Part shown: positions 236 to 13,247 of the stretch, in pieces | Layout of the letters: each line of letters begins with the position of its first letter | Numbering within the stretch: position 1 is the first letter of the stretch | Source: a virus | Taxonomy: Duplodnaviria > Heunggongvirae > Uroviricota > Caudoviricetes | Length of the DNA: 13,512 nucleotides | Strand: one strand, 5' to 3' | Virus record (IMG/VR): IMGVR_UViG_2693429524_000013 | Made by a program: the position numbers and the translations under genes | The notes under the pieces: generated by a model | Databases searched by the model: none | What the model was told of the DNA's origin: nothing | The model's input: the letters and a program-made list of their open reading frames with translations, nothing else

Positions 236-694
236 TCAACCTCTCCCCACATTTGACCAGTATTTGATTGCACCGATCAAATCATCATAGTGGCGCATTG
301 CATCATTGAAGCCTTTATAGCTTGCCCATTGTGGTGAAACTTTGTTATTGCTGAATTGCCCACTAATCAGGATAGTCTCCAGAATGTCGGCGTATCGCTT
401 GCCAATTCGCTTCCTGACGGCCTCAGAGCTTCCACCCTTTACGATTGCATTAATCAGGGCTTTTGTGTGTCTCAGGCTCTCATAGAGCATTGCAGCGTGG
501 GCAGATTCCATAAATGAGCGTTTAGGCAAATCACCCCACCCCTCAGAATGAATTGCTGCCAGTGTGGCGTAATTCAGGCCGCTATAGTGTTTCCCGTCAT
601 CCCAGCCAACCGCTACACCTTCCATCTGTGAGAGCTCTTTATGCAGCTTATCCATCATGCGCTTGTCTATGGTGCACCGGACTTTCGGACTCAT
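236..694 (-). CDS. hypothetical phage protein (152 aa), distal gene of minus-strand head-module operon
   Basis: ORF 236..694. ATG at 694 with GGAG 8 nt upstream on minus strand. Start overlaps the stop of the upstream ORF (ATGA), suggesting translational coupling. No family recognised by eye. Confidence 0.55.
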   Translation of the reverse strand: MSPKVRCTIDKRMMDKLHKELSQMEGVAVGWDDGKHYSGLNYATLAAIHSEGWGDLPKRSFMESAHAAMLYESLRHTKALINAIVKGGSSEAVRKRIGKRYADILETILISGQFSNNKVSPQWASYKGFNDAMRHYDDLIGAIKYWSNVGRG

Positions 695-1494
695 TTGTTG
701 ATCTCCGTGATGTCATCAAGCAACATGTTGGCCTTATCAATCATCGTTTCGTGGAACTCATTCGACACAACAGACTTATCACCTGCGGCAATCTTTCCCG
801 CTGCCTCTCCCTGTGCATATTCCCCGCGATGCTTAGCCCTGGTTGATTTCGTAGCAGCATTGCCAGCGTTACTACCCTCTTTAGCACTATTAACAGCACC
901 CTTTTGCTGTGTTTTGTTCACCTTCTTACTGTTAGTGAAAACTCCGGCATTTTCGACCATCTTCACCTTGAAGGTGCGGAATTCTTCAAAGGTGCAATCA
1001 ATAGTGATGCAGTCACCGGAGGAAGAGCTACGCTTAACTTCACATTTCGTCATGATGAAGTTCTCAAGGAGTCCGGCATCTTCACTCACCAGGCTAACAA
1101 GCTGGCGCTTGTCTCTCATTTCCATAAGTGCCTGAACAGCGGCAGCAGGGCGCATAGATTCACGGGGATTATCTGGATCAGTGTTCCGGTCGATGTAGTT
1201 CTCTTTCCGGATGATATGAGGAGAAGAGGTAATAATGCCCGTAAAGCTGACAGATTTATCTTTAATGACGGCATGGTCTGACATGGTGGTGCCATCCTCG
1301 ACCGCATAGCTCGATTTCTCAACAGGGAACGAATAGCTGACATCAGAGATAGAGTCAAAGAAGATAGCCACGTTATCGGTATAGTTGAAGCCATCCATTA
1401 TATTTTTGTTTTGTGAATATCCCCCACACATAACAGTGAATGCAGGAGATCTCGACTCAGCTTGTTTTGCAGCTGTCAGAGCATCATTAGCCAT
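691..1494 (-). CDS. hypothetical phage protein (about 267 aa; start uncertain)
   Basis: Longest ORF is 691..1611, but the codon at 1611 is TTG with no SD. First ATGs are at 1503 and 1494, with GGAGG just upstream (spacing 1 and 10 nt). 1494 chosen as most plausible. Function not recognisable by eye. Confidence 0.5.
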   Translation of the reverse strand: MANDALTAAKQAESRSPAFTVMCGGYSQNKNIMDGFNYTDNVAIFFDSISDVSYSFPVEKSSYAVEDGTTMSDHAVIKDKSVSFTGIITSSPHIIRKENYIDRNTDPDNPRESMRPAAAVQALMEMRDKRQLVSLVSEDAGLLENFIMTKCEVKRSSSSGDCITIDCTFEEFRTFKVKMVENAGVFTNSKKVNKTQQKGAVNSAKEGSNAGNAATKSTRAKHRGEYAQGEAAGKIAAGDKSVVSNEFHETMIDKANMLLDDITEINK

Positions 1495-1699
1495 ATTAAA
1501 CATGCCTCCAAATTGGTCCACTTCTTTCGCTGGCTTAGCCAGGTGACTAAGGTCACCCCTTCGGGCGTGAGTGGATTTAGCTAAAGCTAAACCTGCAAAA
1601 GATGCAGGCAAAATAGAACTTATCGTTGCCCTGCTTAAAATCTGCAGAAAATACAGGGCAGTTATTCGTTAGAATCGCTTATAGCTCTTCCCGAGAGCG

Positions 1700-2065: not shown

Positions 2066-3112
2066 TTATTTAGCCTTGGCTTTTGCCAGAGCAGCGGCGG
2101 CGGAGTTACTAACACTCACTTTAACCACAACTTCAGGCATCATGTTCATGAAAGCATAAGAGGATTCAATGAAGATTTCTCGTTTACCTCTGGACTCTTC
2201 CATATACATGAAAGCTTCACGTGCAGCGCCGTTTGCAAGCTTCAGGTTGCGAGCGCAAGGGCCGAAAAATTGAGTATAAACGCCCACCATATCGCCTAAC
2301 GCATGTGGCTGGAATTGTGGGACCAGATAAGCAGTATTCTCTGGCAGACTATCCATTTGCACCACACGCAGGGCTAAGCCCGGAATGCGGAAGGTCGGGA
2401 AGCCCGGCAGAATATCCTCAGGGAACATCAGGCCTTTGTCAGTGATATTTTGATTGCCGAACAACAGCACCTTACGGAGCAGTTCATCAGTCTGAATTGC
2501 AGCAAAGAGTTCAGCACGGCAGAACAGGGTGAAACCACGCAGAGCACGAACGACACCACGCTGTTTAACCTTGCTCAGTGCAACCAGGTCCTGCAGCTGT
2601 TTAAGGATATCTTTAGCTAAATCCACTTCTGAAGTGGTTTGCTGTGCGCCCAGCAGTTCGCACACATTCAGTTCTTTACCCTTGGTGAGGATAATTTTGT
2701 TCTCAAAGAGAGCAAGCTGGCGTGCTTCTTCGTGGGTCTGGCGTAAGCCTTCGCCAAGCTGAATAACACGACGAGCGGTTACAGACTCTAAATTCTCTTC
2801 GGAATCTTTGCCCGGAACGCGGATACCCTGCCAGTCAGAAGGATAAATAGCACTTGATGCGGCAGTGAATGCCATATCACCCGTGCCCGTTTCACGCTCA
2901 TCTGCGGTAATGGTCGCCATCTGTTCACCGTAGCGAGGATACTGACCGAAAGCAGATTGTTTCACCTGGCGAACTTTGTCATATTCAAATTTAAAGGTAT
3001 TGCACAGAGCAGTAGTGTTGAAGATATCCATTGCTGAAATAATCTGGTTATCCAGCGGGATGTCTTTAATCAGACCACACAGATCGCGAACTTCGAATTC
3101 TTTCTTAGCCAT
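2066..3112 (-). CDS. phage major capsid protein, lambda gpE-like
   Basis: Track ORF 2066..3118 begins at TTG; ATG at 3112 has AGGAGG 6 nt upstream. Size (~348 aa) fits gpE-type capsid proteins. Segment RRVIQLGEGLRQTHEEARQLALFENKIILTKGK resembles lambda gpE region RRRIIMQNMRDEELAIAQVEEMQAVSAVLKGK (alignment recalled from memory, not computed). Preceded by a ~110-aa gene, as D precedes E in lambda. Confidence 0.65.
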   Translation of the reverse strand: MAKKEFEVRDLCGLIKDIPLDNQIISAMDIFNTTALCNTFKFEYDKVRQVKQSAFGQYPRYGEQMATITADERETGTGDMAFTAASSAIYPSDWQGIRVPGKDSEENLESVTARRVIQLGEGLRQTHEEARQLALFENKIILTKGKELNVCELLGAQQTTSEVDLAKDILKQLQDLVALSKVKQRGVVRALRGFTLFCRAELFAAIQTDELLRKVLLFGNQNITDKGLMFPEDILPGFPTFRIPGLALRVVQMDSLPENTAYLVPQFQPHALGDMVGVYTQFFGPCARNLKLANGAAREAFMYMEESRGKREIFIESSYAFMNMMPEVVVKVSVSNSAAAALAKAKAK

Positions 3113-3123
3113 CTTCAACCTCC

Positions 3124-3972: not shown

Positions 3973-4195
3973 CACCCTGATTATATAAATTCTAATAATT
4001 AGCGTAGTAACGGTATTTTCAGACCTCTATCAATCCCATCAATACGTCACCCCACCCTTTAGACATATACATCTATCACTACTTTATAAAGCCTGATAGA
4101 TATCCGTTGATCCTGATCAAGGTTTTCCGGGGATTTACCCGGTTATAGTTCGAATCAAGGAAGGGGAGCATTGATAGCACCCAAACCGAACAAAC

Positions 4196-4449: not shown

Positions 4450-4710
4450 ATGACGGGGGCTAAAGATATCAGGAGACTGAGGGAAGAGCTGATAGCTGAA
4501 ATTAAAGCTAAGGCAAAGCAAATGGAGATAGCCGCACAAATGGATGTAGCGGAACAGATGTACAAGATGGTTGAAGAGGGAACACCACGACAGGTTATCG
4601 CTAAAACCTTCGGTGTGGGGATCGCCACCGTGCACAGAAGGCTGAAAGCCTATGCCGACTACCACAACATTGAGAGAGGGGAGGATGGGAGATTTAAGAA
4701 GAATAAATAG
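4450..4710 (+). CDS. small helix-turn-helix DNA-binding protein (86 aa)
   Basis: ORF 4450..4710 with GAGGAG SD. Segment TPRQVIAKTFGVGIATVHRRLK is a classic HTH pattern. N-terminal part reads as coiled-coil-like. Confidence 0.6.
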   Translation: MTGAKDIRRLREELIAEIKAKAKQMEIAAQMDVAEQMYKMVEEGTPRQVIAKTFGVGIATVHRRLKAYADYHNIERGEDGRFKKNK

Positions 4711-4767: not shown

Positions 4768-5289
4768 ATGTTATTCCAGAAAGACAAAGAATCAGTAAAT
4801 AAAAGGCTTTTTAAAGAACTGGTAAAAATGTTCTTTCAGTACACTGCAGCGTTTTTGATAGCCGGGCCTTGGTTAATGGCTATCTGTTTTTACCCTGCTA
4901 CCTTGTTTATTGGCAGTAGCAAGTTCGGCGATGGCCCGTTTCATGTGGATATTGGTTTTATAGATTCTCTCCTGATCCGTCCTATAAATGCTGTTCTCAA
5001 TGCTTTCTACTTCCCAACTAGTCTAGAGGGGTGGGCGGTAACCTGGGGTGTTTTAGGCTTAGCATATGTATATTGGTTGGTTGGCTTTTTGTGGGGTGCA
5101 ATCTGTGCTCTCCTCGATATTGATACAGGATCAAGCCGTAGGAGTAGTGGTAATAATAGCGGAGCGGGTGTATATGCACACGTAGGTACCAGAGGGGTAA
5201 GTATCACCGCAGGTACCCGATTCGCTGGCGGCTGGCTGAGTATAGGCAAACGCGGCGTTAGTTGGAGAAAAAGCAAAAAACTGTTCTGA
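4768..5289 (+). CDS. predicted membrane protein (173 aa)
   Basis: ORF 4768..5289. Recurrent motif ends 11 nt before the ATG, followed by AGGGG SD. At least two hydrophobic helices (FFQYTAAFLIAGPWLMAICFYPATLFIG and AVTWGVLGLAYVYWLVGFLWGAICALL) and a Gly/Ser/Arg-rich C-terminal tail. Followed by a strong intrinsic terminator. Confidence 0.6.
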   Translation: MLFQKDKESVNKRLFKELVKMFFQYTAAFLIAGPWLMAICFYPATLFIGSSKFGDGPFHVDIGFIDSLLIRPINAVLNAFYFPTSLEGWAVTWGVLGLAYVYWLVGFLWGAICALLDIDTGSSRRSSGNNSGAGVYAHVGTRGVSITAGTRFAGGWLSIGKRGVSWRKSKKLF

Positions 5290-5296
5290 CCTACCA

Positions 5297-5318
5297 GGGG
5301 GCCATCACGGCCCCTTTT
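5297..5318 (+). terminator. rho-independent terminator after the membrane-protein gene
   Basis: GC-rich 6-bp stem GGGGCC/GGCCCC with 5-nt loop, followed by TTTT (5315-5318). Lies 8 nt past the stop at 5289. Confidence 0.6.
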
Positions 5319-5404
5319 CTATTTCCAGTCGCTATAGCTCCTGAGTAATTCCACTCCCTGAGGTCGTGATCAATTCCACACCCTACCCCCTGATCAATTA
5401 ACCC

Positions 5405-5448
5405 CTATTTAATGGGTATTTAATGCCTATTTATTGATTTAATCCGTT
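5405..5448. repeat. AT-rich 11-bp tandem repeats (3-4 units)
   Basis: ctatttaatgg / gtatttaatgc / ctatttattga / tttaatccgtt in perfect tandem from 5405. Period is about one helical turn; candidate DNA-unwinding or bending element. Confidence 0.5.
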
Positions 5449-5514
5449 TTATGCCACAACCGCCCGGTTGACAGAGTAAGAGAGAGGGTGTAACCCTTTT
5501 TCGTAATACTAATG

Positions 5515-5530
5515 AAATCAATAAGTTAGC
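5515..5530 (+). repeat. 16-nt direct repeat AAATCAATAAGTTAGC, copy 1
   Basis: Exact 16-mer also at 13259-13274. Both copies are preceded 13-14 nt upstream by TAATA(C/T)T and lie shortly after a gene end. Confidence 0.5.
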
Positions 5531-6618
5531 TTAATAGGCCTTTTCTCTATTTTTGTCAAATTTAACATACCCTAAAAAACTGCAAAATCTGGCTGCAAGA
5601 TTATCTGCAGCTGGATTTCTTACACCTCATTTTGTGGTATCACCCTGACTAGTTTGTGCATAAATTGAACAGTTTTTAACATTTCCTCTTCACCTGGTAA
5701 CCACACAAAAAGCTAAAAACGAGGCACAGATAATCTTAGAGGCCTATTTTCTTGTTATCACTCTGGAAACGTCGTAGAAGTGATTTTGATGAAAGGCGAC
5801 CTACCCTATTACACCCCCATTTTTTGTTATCACAATTGCATCCTGTGTGGCTATATGGCTATGTGCTGAAAGCGGTCTCGGGTGTGGGTGTCAGAAATAT
5901 CCATTAGCGGTATTTGAGCTTATGGGTAACTCGTCTGAGGTGCCAGGCAGGCGCTCCCCTACCTCCCTTTTTTCTTCTAACAATTCTCAAATATCACACC
6001 ACTGCCCACCACGTTGCTATTATGTTAATTCTTAAGCTTTGCTGTATGTTGTGCACATTATTTATTCAGGTGGCTGTACGTAAATTCTGTGCCCACTGAT
6101 CATGATTTTTAAATCAGATTTTGTAGTGCGGTTTCTTAGTGCTGATAAGATCTATTATGTTAAATGCAATTTTCCCAACCCTTCAAATCAATGACTTACA
6201 TGTAAGCATGCACTAACACCACACACAGCACATTAGACGTATAGATGGCTATATCCCACATATTTGATTGTTTTGTAGTCATTCCCCTGATCATTTAACC
6301 AGTATAGTTTGTTATCTGCAGACCACAAAATCGGAATTTACATCTGATTAACATAATCTGTTAGCATGATCACCATTACCCACACAACAATAACCCCATG
6401 TAAGCCTCTTCAGGCAATTTATCGGCGTGTTGGTGTGAACAGTCTTTCATGTTCTTTATGTATCAGTTGTCCTGTGTGGTGATTTGGTGGACTGCCCCAG
6501 GGGCCATACTTATGATGCCCGGTCAACATAGCTGTTGATAAAATCAACGGGTGTTGACCTGCATATTTCCCACACATGAGAGGAAATCAGAGCAAAGAGA
6601 GAGGAGAGAGGTTTGTTA

Positions 6619-6668
6619 GTCACATATGGTGATTTGAGCTCATCTCAAACCTTCTACGAAGGCCTTTG
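6619..6668. repeat. tandem-hairpin element, copy A
   Basis: Hairpin 1: TTTGAG (6633-6638) / CTCAAA (6644-6649). CC linker. Hairpin 2: CCTTC (6650-6654) / GAAGG (6658-6662) with loop TAC. Flanked by TCACAT..GGTGATTTGAG and GGCCTTTG. Homologous to copy B. Confidence 0.5.
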
Positions 6669-6719
6669 CTAGTCAAAATCAAGTCACATTAGAGTCAAAT
6701 CAGATGCAATCAATCCCCC

Positions 6720-6778
6720 ACCTGTTGGGATTTCCCACATGTTCAACCATACACAGGAGCTAACCTGTTGGGATTTCC
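6720..6778. repeat. pair of 16-bp direct repeats ACCTGTTGGGATTTCC
   Basis: Identical 16-mers at 6720-6735 and 6763-6778 (43 bp apart). They share the ACCTGT core with the iterons immediately downstream. Confidence 0.6.
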
Positions 6779-6813
6779 TACAACCCCTTTCAGTCATACT
6801 CAGGCACCACACC

Positions 6814-7054
6814 CCGGTAAATATTTCCCTACTACCCCGGAGAATTTCTCCGCACTACCTGTAAAGAATTTTCACACCTGTGTGTTTATACAATCATACT
6901 CTCCTGTTTTGCAGTCATTGCACCCATGATACACAGCCCTAACCTGTAAAATATTTTTACTACCCCGCCAATAATACGGCCCATACCTGTAAAATATTTT
7001 TACTACTACCTGTCAAAATCTTTTACTACTACCTGTAAAAATATTTGACACTAA
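6814..7054. repeat. iteron array: six direct repeats of a ~21-23 bp unit
   Basis: Copies of CCTGTAAAATATTTTTACTAC-like units start at 6814, 6858, 6953, 6986, 7009 and 7032. The last three are exactly tandem at 23-bp spacing. Same orientation throughout; no ORF. Confidence 0.7.
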
Positions 7055-7101
7055 TAGATAAAGTAATAGACCACACAATAGATCCCCCTAACCCCCCAGG
7101 G

Positions 7102-7142
7102 GGGAATGGGGAGGGATCAGAGAGTGGGGAAGGTTTTCTAAG
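7102..7142. other. C6-A-G6 palindrome followed by G-tract-rich block
   Basis: CCCCCCAGGGGGG (7102-7114) followed by GGGGGGAATGGGGAGGGATCAGAGAGTGGGGAAGG. Four G-runs of 3 or more; possible G-quadruplex on the plus strand. Confidence 0.35.
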
Positions 7143-7245
7143 GGAAAAGCTTAACCCACAAATGAAAGCCTAAAGAGCATTAGCGACTCTTTAGGCAATC
7201 TGTGTGTGGGGTGACAATGTATTCCATACATGACACGTCACCCTG

Positions 7246-7316
7246 CTCACATGTGTGGTCCACTTCGTGGATTTGAGTTCACTCCGTAACTCAAACCCTC
7301 TACGAGGGCCTTGTGT
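7246..7316. repeat. tandem-hairpin element, copy B
   Basis: Hairpin 1: TTTGAGTT (7272-7279) / AACTCAAA (7288-7295). CC linker. Hairpin 2: CCCTC (7296-7300) / GAGGG (7304-7308) with loop TAC. Differs from copy A by a T-A to C-G double change that keeps the pair. Confidence 0.5.
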
Positions 7317-7410
7317 GGGGAGCGTAGTGCGATAGCACGTAGCTATATAATGTGGAGTCCGGATAAGAGACTTCTGTTTCCAATCCGGACCGTTTAAGCG
7401 AGTGGTTTCT

Positions 7411-7436
7411 CGCGCGCGTGCACGCACACATATATA
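7411..7436. other. 26-nt perfect alternating pyrimidine-purine tract (Z-DNA-prone)
   Basis: CGCGCGCGTGCACGCACACATATATA alternates pyrimidine/purine without a break for 26 nt. Read directly from the sequence. Confidence 0.5.
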
Positions 7437-7616
7437 AAGGATACACTCATAAATCGAAAATAAGGCCCCTAAATGGCCTTCTGGCTGCATTAACTAGTTT
7501 GAGTAGTGTAATTGCATTACCTGATGCTCAAATCGCGTTGTAGGGCCTCTTATGATGTTTGAGTTTAACACCCTCCAAAGTTTTAACAAAAAGTGCTCTC
7601 CCTCCATTGTGGGCCA

Positions 7617-7646
7617 TTGACAATCTTATTGCATAAATGCTATAAG
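7617..7646 (+). promoter_or_regulatory. possible second plus-strand promoter
   Basis: TTGACA (7617-7622), 18-bp spacer, TATAAG (7641-7646). Motif CCATTGACAAT recurs at 7745 within a perfect palindrome ATTGACAA-ttgg-TTGTCAAT (7746-7765). Confidence 0.3.
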
Positions 7647-7936
7647 TTATTCTGTTTTTGACACGGTAGGGGACATTAATAATGCTTACCCCTTTGCTGT
7701 GGACTTGTTTGTACCTATAGCTCGCCTAAATGATAATGATTCCCATTGACAATTGGTTGTCAATATGATAAGATTATAGATAGTGGGAGAAACAGATCCG
7801 GAGGTCAACGTGGAACTGAGCGACGCTATAGCGATCATCAACCTGGCTGTAATGTGGTGCGGTGTTGCCTACATAGCCGGAGTAACTGCAATCGACAACC
7901 TTGAAGAAAAAATGATAGATAAATACAAAAAGATTG

Positions 7937-7965
7937 TTGACAATCTCGCAAATAGCTGATAAAAT
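7937..7965 (+). promoter_or_regulatory. sigma70 promoter for the plus-strand operon
   Basis: TTGACA (7937-7942), 17-bp spacer, TAAAAT (7960-7965). The -35 sits in an imperfect palindrome GATTGTTGACAATC. About 120 nt upstream of the first gene (8088). Confidence 0.5.
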
Positions 7966-8016
7966 ATAAAGCATAGGGTAATTCTCATCATAGTGAATTT
8001 TCCTTTAATGAACTGG

Positions 8017-8044
8017 CGGGAGCTATTAGTTCCCGTTTCTTTTT
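8017..8044 (+). terminator. terminator-like hairpin in the leader of the plus-strand operon
   Basis: CGGGA (8017-8021), 9-nt loop, TCCCG (8031-8035), then TTTCTTTTT (8036-8044). Lies between the promoter at 7937-7965 and the first gene. Short stem, so modest confidence. Confidence 0.35.
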
Positions 8045-8087
8045 AACCCTATATCGCACAGGCGGTGAGCTAACAGGAGATTGAATC

Positions 8088-8297
8088 ATGGCTAAAACCG
8101 GACCGATAAGCCAGCTGGTAAACTGGACTACTGACGAAATCGTCGAGAACGTGCTTAAAGGTAACTTTCGCAAAACTTCCGTTTATGCATTTATTCGAAA
8201 ACATAAAGGAGAATATCCACACATTGAAGCGGCAATAGAAAGATTAAACTTTATTAAACTTGAGCGCCAGCTGGAAAGATATAAACATCTGATTTAA
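8088..8297 (+). CDS. small protein (69 aa), possible regulator
   Basis: ORF 8088..8297 with CAGGAGA SD 6 nt upstream. First gene after the promoter at 7937-7965. Basic and small; function not recognised. Confidence 0.55.
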   Translation: MAKTGPISQLVNWTTDEIVENVLKGNFRKTSVYAFIRKHKGEYPHIEAAIERLNFIKLERQLERYKHLI

Positions 8298-8317
8298 TAA
8301 ATAATTGTGAGGGAATT

Positions 8318-9202
8318 ATGGCAAACAATAAACTGGGGGCACATTTCACCCCCATTTTTAAACGTTTTATCAAGTATAATTTTGAAAATCCAATTGCAAA
8401 AACTACAACAGGCAAAGAGAGATTTAATTTAAATGCGACGGAATTGATAATTTACGGGGAAATGGTTGGCTTTCATTTAAACGGCAAAGAAATATTCATC
8501 TCGGAGCAGACCTTAGCAGATGATTGGGATTTTTCAAGACCAACGATTATTAAAGCTATTAAATCTCTAGTAAATGCTGGGATTATTTCTAAAGATAACC
8601 GGAAAGGCAAATCTAACATTTACAAACTGTTAATTACACCTGAGCAGTTTGATAAAATGTGCGATGAGCAGGGTATTAAAACCTTAGACAGTGTGGGAGA
8701 CAGCAAAGAGGCACCTGCTACACAGGCCCAAGATAATCAACAGGAAGCCCCAAAACAAGCCACACAGCAGCCTGAAAAGCCCGAGGCAATGCAATCCCCT
8801 TCCCAACCTAAAAAAGAACACAGAGAACGCCGTAGAGACGCTGGCAAACGTGAAATAGATGAGCACGGTTATCCGATTCTGACAAGCGATGAAATGAATG
8901 CCAGATATAAAGTAATTCAGGCCGCATTTAAAGATCAGAAGAGAATTAAATTATCTGAATTGCGTGATACATTTTACGGGCCGGAGGTGATGGATAAAAT
9001 TAAAGGCACTATTCCTGATAAAATCTGGAAAGAGGAAGATTACTGGCACCTGACAGAGCAGGCCCTTAAGGTAGCTCAACACGTGGTTAAAAGAGGCAAA
9101 TCAATTATTATTGATTCTATTAGTCATGGCTATGATGCACCGAAAGAAAGGTTGTGGAACAACTGCAAGCTTGTAAAAGGCGAATTGACAATTACAAAAT
9201 AA
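8318..9202 (+). CDS. winged-helix DNA-binding protein (294 aa), possibly replication-initiator/organiser-like
   Basis: ORF 8318..9202 with GAGGGA SD. N-terminal pattern (ELIIYGEMVGF...ISEQTLADDWDFSRPTIIKAIKSLVNAGIIS) resembles wHTH domains of phage O-type/DnaD-like replication proteins. Q/P/K-rich low-complexity linker, then a C-terminal domain. Family assignment is inference. Confidence 0.55.
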   Translation: MANNKLGAHFTPIFKRFIKYNFENPIAKTTTGKERFNLNATELIIYGEMVGFHLNGKEIFISEQTLADDWDFSRPTIIKAIKSLVNAGIISKDNRKGKSNIYKLLITPEQFDKMCDEQGIKTLDSVGDSKEAPATQAQDNQQEAPKQATQQPEKPEAMQSPSQPKKEHRERRRDAGKREIDEHGYPILTSDEMNARYKVIQAAFKDQKRIKLSELRDTFYGPEVMDKIKGTIPDKIWKEEDYWHLTEQALKVAQHVVKRGKSIIIDSISHGYDAPKERLWNNCKLVKGELTITK

Positions 9203-9240
9203 ACATTCTTATTTTTAAGTTCATCAAAGGAAAATTTAAA

Positions 9241-9387
9241 ATGTATGGCGATTTTGATTATTACCTGGAAAAGGAAAAATATTTTGAAGATGAACTATCA
9301 CAACATTTTTCATATTGGGAAGAATATTGTGGTTGGTTAGCTGAAGATCCAGCAGATGAAGAAAATGATTCTGACATCCCTTATTAA
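9241..9387 (+). CDS. small acidic protein (48 aa)
   Basis: Track ORF 9154..9387 overlaps the end of the 294-aa gene. Internal ATG at 9241 has AAGG about 10 nt upstream and lies after the upstream stop; shorter form preferred. Confidence 0.4.
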   Translation: MYGDFDYYLEKEKYFEDELSQHFSYWEEYCGWLAEDPADEENDSDIPY

Positions 9388-9478
9388 TACCCCCAAATAA
9401 ACCAACAAACTACTAAATAAACTAATTACTAGAACTAGATTGATTGCCCTGATCTTTTAAACGTTCGGAGAATTAATC

Positions 9479-9964
9479 ATGTTCAAATCTGATCTTTCTG
9501 ATTCCCAATTTGAAAAACTGGTAGCACTGCAGAAATACCTCCCCAGTGATGATCAACCAACACGACAGGCCAAACACTTATTAGTCGAGGGCTTTACCCC
9601 TGAATTCGTTGCGGAATATACAGGCGTTAAACTTGAGAAAGTCCAAAAACTATATAATGAGTCCTGGAATCCACGGTGTCGAGTTCCCCTCAGTGTCTAT
9701 AACGACATAGATAGAGATAAAAATGTCTTCGAAGATCGCCGCCGCAAATCTCTTTTAATGTGGAATTGTGGGATGAATATTGAAGAGATAGCAAAAGAAT
9801 TAAAAGTAACCTGCTTTCATATATGGGGCTTGTTGAGCGACCTCCTGCCACGTAAGGAGCTTAATCAACGTTTGCCTAAGCCCGGTAGTCGTGCTTATCG
9901 CGAATTTATATTCATCTACCGCCGCCATAGCAATAAAGTCCGGAAAGCAATGCAGCGCAAATAG
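9479..9964 (+). CDS. putative DNA-binding regulator (161 aa)
   Basis: ORF 9479..9964 with GGAG SD. Two HTH-like segments (PEFVAEYTGVKLEKVQKLYNE and MNIEEIAKELKVTCFHIWGLL). Basic C-terminus. Confidence 0.55.
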   Translation: MFKSDLSDSQFEKLVALQKYLPSDDQPTRQAKHLLVEGFTPEFVAEYTGVKLEKVQKLYNESWNPRCRVPLSVYNDIDRDKNVFEDRRRKSLLMWNCGMNIEEIAKELKVTCFHIWGLLSDLLPRKELNQRLPKPGSRAYREFIFIYRRHSNKVRKAMQRK

Positions 9965-11144: not shown

Positions 11145-13247
11145 ATGGCAATGAAGGAAGTCGCCAGACTAACAAACGTTATTTACTGGGATTCTGATAA
11201 ATCCTCCTGGCGAAAAGAAGTTAAACGGCTTGAGGATTATAAAAAATCCTGGAAGAAAGCCACCGACGATATAGCTAAAGCTGATTTTAAATCTAATCAG
11301 GCTGTGCTCAGAACACAAAGAACACGCGCTAAGGTGGAAGAGCAGATTGCCAGAGCACAGAAGAAACAACGTGCTCAGGCTGTCAGCCGTCTGACCGGGG
11401 GCAATAATCCGGAGCTCTCCTCTATGCGCAAGTTCTATCAGCAGCAAGCCAGAGAAGCCGCCAGACAACAAAAACTGTTAGATCGTAGTGTTGGAGATGT
11501 TCAGCACAGAAAAGCACGTGTAGGGGCCAACAGTGCACGAATCAGCAGCATGTTTGATGGATCCCTGGTTGCTCAGTTCCAATCCAGAATCCAGAGAGTT
11601 AATGCTGATTATGCTAAAGGGGCTATTAACCTGCAGACCTATAATCAGAAAATGGCTCGGCTCAGAGCTGAAATGAAGATGGCAACAGTAGAGGCCGGAA
11701 AATTTCAGAGCAGACTGGATAAACTGGCATCAGGTGCCAGCAAGGTGCATGACAACCTGGGCAAAATCAACTCCACACTAGGCAAGATAGCCATTGGCCT
11801 TACTGCCGCTGGCTGGGGTGTTCAGCGTGCTGTTAGTGGTGCTATGGGTAGCCTTGCAGATCGCAACAGTGCCTACTTCGGTTTGATGGCACAGAACAAG
11901 GATGATAAAGCCAAGACTGACCAGCAGATGGCCTACGTCAAAAGAATCTCTTATGACTATGGGATGGATCAGCGTGAGACCGAAGGCGGCTTTATGCGCT
12001 TTGCTGCAGCCACACCAAGCATAAAAGAGAAAGATAAGCAGGATCTCTTTGAGGCTATGGCGATTAAAGGCCGATCAGTGGGTGCTACTGCGGACCAACA
12101 GAACAGGGCTATCGTTGCACTAGGACAGATATATAGCAAGGGCGGTCGAGTGTATGCGGAAGAGCTTAAGGGCCAGCTGTCAGAAGCCCTGGCAGGTTCT
12201 CAGGTAGATTTCACTAAGGCCGCTATCGATGCCGGAATCATCAAGAAAGAGGAAGAATTTAATAAAGCCCTTGAAGATGGCAAGATCACCATGGACAAGC
12301 TTCTTCCTTCCCTAGTGAAAATCTGGGGTGCTGCAAAAGAAACTAAAGCTTTTGCTGAATCCATGAAACAGCCAGAAGTAGCAATGCAGCGCATGAAAAA
12401 CAGCTTTAACGAGCTGGCGATTCAGTTTATGGGTGTTGTGGATCCTGCCGATGGCGTTGTTAGCTTATCTGAATCTCTGATCTCCATCTTCGAAGACCTC
12501 ACCACTGATATGGACGGCAGCGGGAGCGCGGCAAAACAGTTTGGTGAAGCAGTCGGTGCTGCCATGCGGGAGATCATGTATTGGGTAGGCTTCGCTAAGG
12601 GCTATATCGAGGTCAAGGCTAAAGAGTTCGGCATGACCGGATCAGAGGTTGGCGAGCTTATCGGGAAACTAGTAGTCGGCTTAGCAGGTCTGAAAGTTAT
12701 TACCACACTGCTTTCCCCTCTAACCGGATTTGTTTCACTTGTCACTCAGCTGATAGCCTTGTTAGGCAAAATCCCTGGTATGAGCAAGCTTATGGCATCT
12801 GCCTCAGGTGGAACGGCAACAGGAGCAGCGGTCATCAGTGCAGGATCTAACGCTGAAAGAAGTTTCATTGATGGCAAGACGCAGGAAATGAGTAAGGAGA
12901 ACTCAAAACAGGGCGCTTTGTTTGAGCTGGGGAGATTTGTCAGCAATGCTGGCGCACTGTTCACACCTGGCGGTGATACTGGTCCTTTGTTCGATCAGGT
13001 CAAAGGCTGGTTTAATAAAGGGCCAACATTGACAGTAGACACTGGCATCAGACCAACACCAACAGGCGGCATAGCTATCCAGAATGGTGGATATCAACCA
13101 GTCCAAGTAAATGTAGCCCCACAAGGTGAGATTTCCGGCAAATGGGAGATAACCATCGATGAGGGGGGAATTGCCAGGGTGATCCAGAAGGAAGTCAGCG
13201 ATCAGTTGGATTGGAAAGCCACACAGGAATCTAACCAGCTTTTCTAA
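11145..13247 (+). CDS. phage tail tape measure protein (700 aa)
   Basis: ORF 11145..13247 with GAGGTG SD 6 nt upstream. N-terminal ~200 aa charged and coiled-coil-like. Central segment (ATADQQNRAIVALGQIYSKGGRVYAEELKGQLSEALAG) matches the tape-measure domain signature as I recall it. C-terminal part has hydrophobic Gly/Ala-rich segments typical of these proteins. Confidence 0.75.
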   Translation: MAMKEVARLTNVIYWDSDKSSWRKEVKRLEDYKKSWKKATDDIAKADFKSNQAVLRTQRTRAKVEEQIARAQKKQRAQAVSRLTGGNNPELSSMRKFYQQQAREAARQQKLLDRSVGDVQHRKARVGANSARISSMFDGSLVAQFQSRIQRVNADYAKGAINLQTYNQKMARLRAEMKMATVEAGKFQSRLDKLASGASKVHDNLGKINSTLGKIAIGLTAAGWGVQRAVSGAMGSLADRNSAYFGLMAQNKDDKAKTDQQMAYVKRISYDYGMDQRETEGGFMRFAAATPSIKEKDKQDLFEAMAIKGRSVGATADQQNRAIVALGQIYSKGGRVYAEELKGQLSEALAGSQVDFTKAAIDAGIIKKEEEFNKALEDGKITMDKLLPSLVKIWGAAKETKAFAESMKQPEVAMQRMKNSFNELAIQFMGVVDPADGVVSLSESLISIFEDLTTDMDGSGSAAKQFGEAVGAAMREIMYWVGFAKGYIEVKAKEFGMTGSEVGELIGKLVVGLAGLKVITTLLSPLTGFVSLVTQLIALLGKIPGMSKLMASASGGTATGAAVISAGSNAERSFIDGKTQEMSKENSKQGALFELGRFVSNAGALFTPGGDTGPLFDQVKGWFNKGPTLTVDTGIRPTPTGGIAIQNGGYQPVQVNVAPQGEISGKWEITIDEGGIARVIQKEVSDQLDWKATQESNQLF

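Follow-up and report, generated by a model that had tools for sequence, protein, structure and literature searches.

A likely iteron-type replication origin and its putative winged-helix initiator in a family of phage-like plasmids of about 13.5 kb

The 13.5-kb element and its repeat array

The window, by which we mean the whole stretch of DNA that was analyzed (13,512 nucleotides), carries genes for phage virion proteins and, in a region devoid of convincing open reading frames, the array of direct repeats that is the subject of this study (Table 1). The 13.5-kb element is a whole circle and not a fragment, being collinear from end to end with nine closed circular Escherichia coli plasmids of 13.2-13.7 kb. 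A further collinear record, L009 (NZ_CP043822.1, 39,610 bp; relatives are cited by such L numbers throughout), is a head-to-tail trimer of the element; the capsid, Dit, and tape-measure ORFs are fragmented in one of its copies, and the trimer is either a real multimer or an artefact of assembly or sequencing. Since the element is complete and is kept as a circle, it must carry an origin. MOB-suite assigned no replicon type to the plasmids and classed them as non-mobilizable. The range of the element comprises these closed plasmids in E. coli and contigs of 13-14 kb in Shigella and E. albertii.

The ORFs scanned in the element include no terminase, portal, helicase, primase, or partition NTPase, and tail tube and lysis genes are likewise missing. 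Carrying virion genes but none of these, the element has the look of a plasmid-borne phage satellite or mini phage-plasmid, apparently an undescribed one. Downstream of the initiator-like gene, the ORFs of 48, 161, 157, 129, and 61 aa gave no family match in Pfam, PHROG, and the other family scans. DNA and protein searches of the phage collection returned nothing matching the array region or the initiator-like protein, and the best identity of the capsid protein in that collection was just ~22-25%; as a whole, the element bears hardly any resemblance to deposited phages. In the literature, we found no description of a family of ~13.5-kb elements of this kind, which thus appears to be undescribed. 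Rfam gave no credible match, either for the whole window at the gathering threshold or for 5200-8100 at an E-value threshold, and the window contains no tRNA genes.

Table 1. Genes and sequence features of the window
Feature	Position	Strand	Basis or remark
Tail-completion/Neck1 protein	236-694	-	Family matches
Dit-like protein	691-1611	-	Family matches
86-aa ORF	Between the Dit-like and capsid genes	-	ORF
Major capsid protein	2066-3118	-	Family matches
111-aa ORF	After the major capsid protein in the gene list	-	ORF
HTH_7 protein	4450-4710	+	Family match
Membrane protein	4768-5289	+	
~2.8-kb stretch without convincing ORF	5290-8088		Contains the array
Class C units (two)	6720-6782	+	ACCTGTTGGGATTTCC(C/T)ACA, 43 bp apart
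Tandem 23-bp foreign units	6811-6879	+	E-type ACCCCGGTAAATATTTCCCTACT, D-type ACCCCGGAGAATTTCTCCGCACT, G-type ACCTGTAAAGAATTTTCACACCT
Putative cognate iteron 1 (class A)	6941-6963	+	AACCTGTAAAATATTTTTACTAC; distal, 43 bp before iteron 2
Putative cognate iterons 2-4 (class A)	6984-7052	+	GT(A/C)AAA-N3-TTT(T/G)AC palindromes; starts 6984, 7007, 7030
AT-rich block CTAATAGATAAAGTAATAGACCACACAATAGAT, candidate DNA-unwinding element	7051-7083	.	Conserved across all iteron classes
GC-rich palindrome CCCCCTAACCCCCCAGGGGGG	7084-7104	.	C-run/G-run stem kept in relatives, loop differs
G-rich block and hairpin GCCTAAAGAG...CTCTTTAGGC	7105-7196	-	Conserved in all classes
Two strong sigma-70-like promoters	7746-7774, 7937-7965	+	Precede the 8088 ORF and rep
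69-aa ORF	8088	+	Upstream of rep
294-aa initiator-like protein gene (rep)	8318-9202	+	Pfam, PHROG, AF2, Foldseek, alignments
Four small ORFs	Between rep and the tape-measure gene	+	
Tape-measure protein	11145-13247	+	

The initial annotation had described six same-orientation copies of one ~23-bp unit, three of them exactly tandem, with two further repeats just upstream. The repeats lie where it placed them: positions 6720-7052 hold nine same-orientation units, every one of which is an imperfect palindrome. Using a repeat finder, we recovered a 23-nt family at 6856, 6941, 6984, 7007, and 7030 (spacings of 85, 43, 23, and 23), another 23-bp tandem pair at 6811/6834, and the two upstream repeats, which start at 6720 and 6763 and represent class C. 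The 22-mer ACCTGTAAAATATTTTTACTAC occurs in two exact copies and in none of 200 dinucleotide shuffles. Dyad symmetry about one common center reaches at least 6/8 in eight of the nine units and 5/8 in the ninth (range 5-7), where a random 24-mer scores 6/8 or more with P = 0.063. The copies are not all of one unit, since the upstream ones belong to foreign specificity classes. Thus, the tandem trio of the initial annotation stands, and its single family of six gives way to four class A units (core CCTGTAAAATATTTTTAC, half-site GT(A/C)AAA), which start at 6941, 6984, 7007, and 7030 and are the only ones of this class. They are spaced by 43, 23, and 23 bp, and the last three, in tandem, adjoin the conserved AT-rich block. 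The units at 6811, 6834, and 6857, which represent three classes, are themselves tandem at 23 bp; therefore, the array contains two 23-bp triplets.

To the right of the array, the same order is found in all compared elements, i.e., the AT-rich block, a palindrome with a C-run/G-run stem, a G-rich stretch, and a hairpin. The AT-rich block contains AATAGA three times, at 7053, 7065, and 7077 (12-bp spacing). When the 60-bp windows of the 13.5 kb are ranked by stability, 7010-7070 comes third from the bottom, ~2.8 sd from the mean. The GC-rich palindrome retains its stem in L024 and L012, with different loops, and the hairpin stem of the 7105-7196 block is kept in L024 with an altered loop. Read on the - strand, the hairpin at 7196-7168 has the form of an intrinsic terminator aimed at the AT-rich block; it and a second terminator-like hairpin on this strand (7103-7084) both face that block, and transcription might enter the candidate origin from the right side. 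Two kinds of host-factor site were also sought. DnaA-box 9-mers with at most one mismatch lie nearest at 6376 and 6533, more than 400 bp off, with none in 6600-8200, and the IHF consensus has no match near the array. Cumulative GC skew was discarded as an origin marker: the minimum falls 46-48 bp to the right of the array in 5/10 elements, near 4000 in 4/10, and elsewhere in 1/10. The signal is ambiguous between two minima of almost equal depth, of which the local one stems from the C-run of the palindrome.

The remainder of the ORF-poor region contains further sequence elements. Both strong promoters, 0.7-0.9 kb from the array, overlap a palindrome of the TTGACAAT type, which is unlike the iterons. 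Palindromes of the ATTGACAAT type (ATTGACAATTGGTTGTCAAT, ATTGTTGACAAT) occur at 7617-7625, 7746-7765, and 7935-7946, overlapping the promoter -35 regions, and probably serve as operators of a repressor distinct from the 294-aa protein. A cassette array at 7197-7430, and also at 6620-6668, is made of 1-4 hairpin modules with TGTGTGG(G) delimiters; there are ~5-8 module types, whose number and order vary between relatives, and an extra cassette copy lies left of the iterons in the window and in L013/L026. The stems of a three-hairpin module co-vary, with compensatory double changes in 7/12 predicted pairs among seven variants. The cassettes have no Rfam match and may be structured RNA or single-strand DNA signals, e.g., priming sites. 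Finally, a second repeat cluster lies at 5336-5436, just past the terminator of the membrane-protein gene. It comprises a pair of 24-nt repeats (5336, 5361; 25 bp apart) and, at 5398-5436, three AT-rich repeats TTAAnnnnTATTTAATG with 11-bp spacing, and its GATC-containing 22-nt repeat CCCCTGATCAWTTAACC recurs at 6284-6305. This cluster could be another protein-binding site (packaging, partition) or an alternative origin.

Co-variation of repeat class and recognition helix

The initial annotation had named the protein encoded at 8318-9202 as a candidate binder of the array and had proposed to look for the same array beside homologous genes. The family of this protein comprises 101 protein clusters, nearly all on contigs of 13.3-14.4 kb from E. 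coli, Shigella, and E. albertii. We compared 22 elements for which both array and gene were available, namely the window, nine plasmids, 11 contigs from the protein look-up, and one metagenome contig. A conserved motif of the left flank had no occurrences in the genome and viral contig collections scanned, and a metagenome scan with a right-flank motif found three loci fitting the pattern. All 22 elements have the array next to the homologous gene in the same geometry: irrespective of class, four repeats stand at about -108, -65, -42, and -19 from the AT-rich block (CTAATAGATAAA).

The sequence of these four repeats changes exactly when the recognition helix of the protein changes. Eight repeat classes follow the turn and recognition helix (residues ~70-86), with no exception among the 22 elements. 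Specifically, the helices FSRPTIIKAIKS and VSRPTVINSIKS go with class A (core CCTGTAAAATATTTTTAC), ATEKTVRSAIKT with class E (core CCGGTAAATATTTCCG), WTPKTVRTAIHS with class F (core GGTAAAAATTACCGGGG), VSDRKIIESIKT with class B (core ACTGAAGATTTCTCAC), VSDRKIRDSIKS with class D (core CCGGAAGATTTCTCCG), KDRGKIVSAIKS with class C (core CCTGTTGGAATTTCCCACA), and KDRGKIASAIKS with class C' (core ATGCGGGAATTTCCAACAT). Like helices pair with like cores, as seen for E and F, B and D, and C and C'. The variable residues are those of the turn and the first turns of the predicted recognition helix (H74-86).

Natural domain swaps separate the parts of the protein, and they show that the repeat class tracks the N-terminal domain and neither the C-terminal domain nor the wing. 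L002 and L005, both of class C, are 100% identical over Rep residues 58-106 and share only 27% identity in the C-terminal domain. Conversely, the window (class A) and L005 (class C) differ in class although their C-terminal domains are 96% identical; their N-terminal regions share 59% identity. The wing was ruled out as the specificity determinant, because a helix with another wing keeps its class: for the D helix, and likewise for the C helix, two different wings were seen with no change of class. The small helix-turn-helix proteins, which the initial annotation had also offered as possible binders, are not borne out, nor are the others among the six further small proteins considered, since the repeat class does not co-vary with them. 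The window (class A) and L005 (class C) have the same 69-aa protein, identity of the HTH_7 protein is at least 93% across all classes, and the 61-aa protein does not differ between elements of classes A to E.

Since the class follows the helix in 22 elements and across the domain swaps, there is strong evidence from these alignments that the N-terminal domain of the 294-aa protein recognizes the four proximal repeats, as it would if the candidate named at the outset is the binder. The 22 elements are related and not independent, and the argument rests on ~10-12 distinct recombinant backgrounds. As read from the compared sequences, repeat sequence and recognition helix have been swapped together at least seven times among the related plasmids. 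Altogether, the repeats are very probably the binding sites of this winged-helix protein.

One relative departs from the family at this locus by a replicon swap. In L007 (NZ_CP020521.1; ~6950-9500 in its rotated coordinates), the gene position of the initiator is occupied by the gene of an unrelated 303-aa MarR-like protein. Three palindromic repeats of its own (TATCAAYATATCAANNTGATATAYTTA) lie just right of the G-rich block, beside an AT-rich tract, and the old class E array is kept, the matching protein being gone. The arrival of a new protein together with its own repeats suggests that protein and repeats are exchanged as one module. In addition, a QEAPKQA motif is still found in the MarR-like protein of L007, which suggests that the recombination junction lies within the linker-coding DNA.

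The 294-aa protein and the function of the array

The family matches of the 294-aa protein point in more than one direction. In Pfam, HTH_36 is just over its cutoff and DnaD_N stays under its own (E 2.6e-4, 21.5 bits against a cutoff of 27); there is no match to Rep_3, nor to Phage_rep_O at E <= 0.01. PHROG returned 16 families, the best at E 1e-10 to 1e-8; most are annotated as replication initiation protein, as O-like, or as DnaD-like helicase loader. In NCBIfam and among PDB sequences, the likeness was confined to generic winged helices (GntR/CodY/MarR/TubR), the best PDB sequence match of the family profile being TubR with a marginal E of 0.0064. Direct homology to lambda O was not supported, as hhalign with the family profile was non-significant (probability 0.1%); given the O-like PHROG families, which match at E 1e-8, a distant relationship to lambda O is conceivable. 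Because the PHROG matches are moderate, the NCBIfam and PDB matches generic, and the comparison with lambda O non-significant, we regard the assignment of the protein as a replication initiator as moderately supported. No other initiator candidate was found among the 17 ORFs scanned.

The AF2 model, built from 27 homologues (mean pLDDT 68), predicts a winged helix-turn-helix with helices at 40-51, 63-69, and 74-86 and a wing at 90-104, followed by a disordered linker (121-177) and a confidently predicted C-terminal domain (178-294). A single winged helix is thus predicted to be joined to an unrelated C-terminal domain, unlike the two winged helices of Rep_3. Foldseek matched the model to winged-helix repressors, to TubR, and to the N-domains of RepA_N proteins (5kbj, 4pql, 4pt7; E 7e-3 to 1.5e-2, rmsd 8-9 Å). 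The C-terminal domain occurs in two alleles, ~27-29% identical, which reassort freely with the N-terminal types, and the linker motif that separates the N- and C-terminal domains, QEAPKQATQQ, hardly varies.

The initial annotation had left the role of the array between an iteron-type origin and a multi-site operator for an initiator or repressor. The PHROG matches, the AT-rich block, and the distance of the promoters favor the former, a function that we infer; an operator role in rep expression is unlikely, since no class A-like site lies near the promoters at 7746-7965. We therefore take the repeats to be the likely replication origin of the element and consider it probable, with fair assurance, that they form a lambda-ori-like iteron origin bound by initiator dimers. 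In the mechanism that we propose, dimers of the 294-aa protein would bind, via their N-terminal winged helices, the four ~18-bp imperfect palindromes (6941, 6984, 7007, 7030). The three proximal sites, 23 bp apart, adjoin the AT-rich block with its three AATAGA copies, beyond which the GC palindrome follows. The bound array, probably wrapped, would melt the AT-rich block, and the C-terminal domain would then recruit the host helicase and replisome to fire the origin, the element itself encoding no helicase or primase.

This proposal draws on the likeness to ori-lambda and its initiator O. The lambda record has four 18-bp iterons at spacings of 20/24/23 bp next to an AT-rich tract; according to PMC7466680, O binds each lambda iteron, an imperfect inverted repeat of 19 bp. 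The window likewise has four ~18-bp imperfect inverted repeats at a spacing of ~20-24 bp with an adjoining AT-rich tract, no DnaA box or IHF consensus nearby, and an initiator that would combine an N-terminal DNA-binding domain, a flexible linker, and a C-terminal recruitment domain. The series of specificities that differ among otherwise conserved relatives also resembles the type-specific O/iteron pairs of lambdoid phages. However, the sites lie 1.26 kb upstream of the putative initiator gene (from the end of the array at 7052 to the gene start at 8318) and not within it as in lambda. In addition, no P-like helicase loader is recognized, the host replicon is a 13.5-kb plasmid and not a lambdoid phage, and the protein shows neither significant sequence similarity to O nor a match to the Pfam family Phage_rep_O.

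With the iteron plasmids pSC101, F, P1, R6K, RK2, and pPS10, the element shares direct repeats, a plasmid-encoded and here putative initiator, and a likely AT-rich unwinding element with short repeats, and its iterons would be expected to set incompatibility as they do there. The classical systems (Rep_3/TrfA) differ in having asymmetric iterons bound by Rep monomers with two winged helices, whereas the units are palindromic here; DnaA boxes are usual in them, whereas none is near the array here; and their rep gene is auto-repressed at inverted half-iterons in its promoter, whereas no class A-like site is found at 7746-7965. The RepA_N/DnaD-like initiators (RepA of pSK41 and pTZ2162) would resemble the 294-aa protein in that an N-terminal winged helix binds iterons and the C-terminal domain, which is thought to engage host replisome proteins, is variable. 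This likeness is weak (E ~1e-2, high rmsd; DnaD_N below threshold), and, unlike in the present element, the RepA_N origins lie within the rep gene and their hosts are Gram-positive.

Among the other readings of the array, the best surviving one accepts the 294-aa protein as its binder and takes the array for a copy-number or incompatibility locus, a distant operator, or a roadblock, with replication starting elsewhere, e.g., at the 5336-5436 cluster or by RNA priming somewhere in the 2.8-kb ORF-poor region. The incA locus of P1, a copy-number or incompatibility element, is the model for such a role. The co-variation proves recognition and not origin firing, so that it agrees with this reading as well, but the array stands in fixed register with a conserved AT-rich block of low stability in all classes. 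Similarly, while the closest relatives of the protein in curated libraries are repressors of the GntR/CodY type, its PHROG matches are initiators, and the 17 ORFs offer no other candidate for that role. The noncoding region does contain further repeats and many hairpins, and the terminator-like hairpins of the - strand are aimed at the array; yet the nearest strong promoters, at the distance given above, carry different palindromes with no cognate site near. Weighing these points, we regard a control locus separate from the start of replication as unlikely.

We give much less credit to a plasmid centromere with a winged-helix binder, like TubR/tubC or ParR/parC. Such sites are arrays of direct repeats, and TubR, whose type III centromere tubC pairs a winged-helix protein with an array of this kind, is both the best PDB profile match (E 0.0064, which is marginal) and an entry in the Foldseek list. 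However, the likeness to TubR is that of a generic winged helix, the protein has an additional 115-residue C-terminal domain and PHROG matches to initiators, and none of the ORFs scanned encodes TubZ or another partition NTPase (ParA, ParM) that could act as the motor. Least credible of all is that the array is a packaging site (pac or a cos-binding region) or that all of its repeats are relics with no function: an element with virion genes has to be packaged in some way, and some upstream units do resemble relics, but the terminase gene is absent, and the proximal four repeats keep their position, their class sequence, and their match to the resident protein in every element, which neither relics nor a site for a helper terminase would do.

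Upstream units and the wider family

The likely origin of the window is preceded by units of other specificities. The units at 6720 and 6763 belong to class C, the one at 6811 to class E, that at 6834 to class D, and that at 6857 to class G. Class C is the cognate class of L002, L005, L012, and L023, and the E and D types serve as cognate arrays in relatives whose Rep helices are different. Class G is cognate to no sampled initiator (101 protein clusters). Its unit at 6857-6879, CCTGT(A/G)AAGAATTTTCACACC, is found in 15/21 elements and lies three mismatches from the class A core; it is possibly the site of an initiator outside the sample, a site of weak class A binding, or a host-factor site. 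The pattern is general, in that nearly every element has single sites for most of the other specificities of the family, in a conserved order, and in L017 the cognate class F array is preceded by a full class B array. In 7/21 relatives (L004, L010, L019, L020, L021, L022, and L024), a 37-bp insertion, ATTAACGGCCCCGAGTCAAGGCCTATGAAACGAGGGT, bisects the second class C unit at its exact center, at the position equivalent to ~6774 of the window.

Most simply, the five upstream units (6720-6879) are relics of earlier swaps of the initiator and iteron module, and the simplest reading of such swaps is that the left crossover falls inside the array. It seems improbable to us that they are instead a maintained panel of heterologous iterons with a role as decoys or in cross-incompatibility. 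If this were true, the upstream sites may act on the initiators of rival sister elements by titration or handcuffing, which would amount to a built-in cross-incompatibility between satellites that share one host and one helper. Alternatively, the foreign sites could let a co-resident relative replicate the element in trans.

The kind of origin described here is, overall, an ordinary one; the replicon itself is untyped, and its family is apparently undescribed. Our analysis identifies the likely replicon of widespread phage-like plasmids of ~13.5 kb in E. coli, Shigella, and E. albertii, a family that plasmid typing tools leave untyped. The family illustrates that a distance of 1.3 kb does not prevent an origin and its putative initiator from being exchanged as a module. 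Its most useful aspect is the specificity series that runs across it: eight matched pairs of helix and DNA site, set in a ~90% identical backbone, constitute a natural data set for recognition by winged helices, and these matched pairs could yield orthogonal origin-initiator pairs for E. coli.
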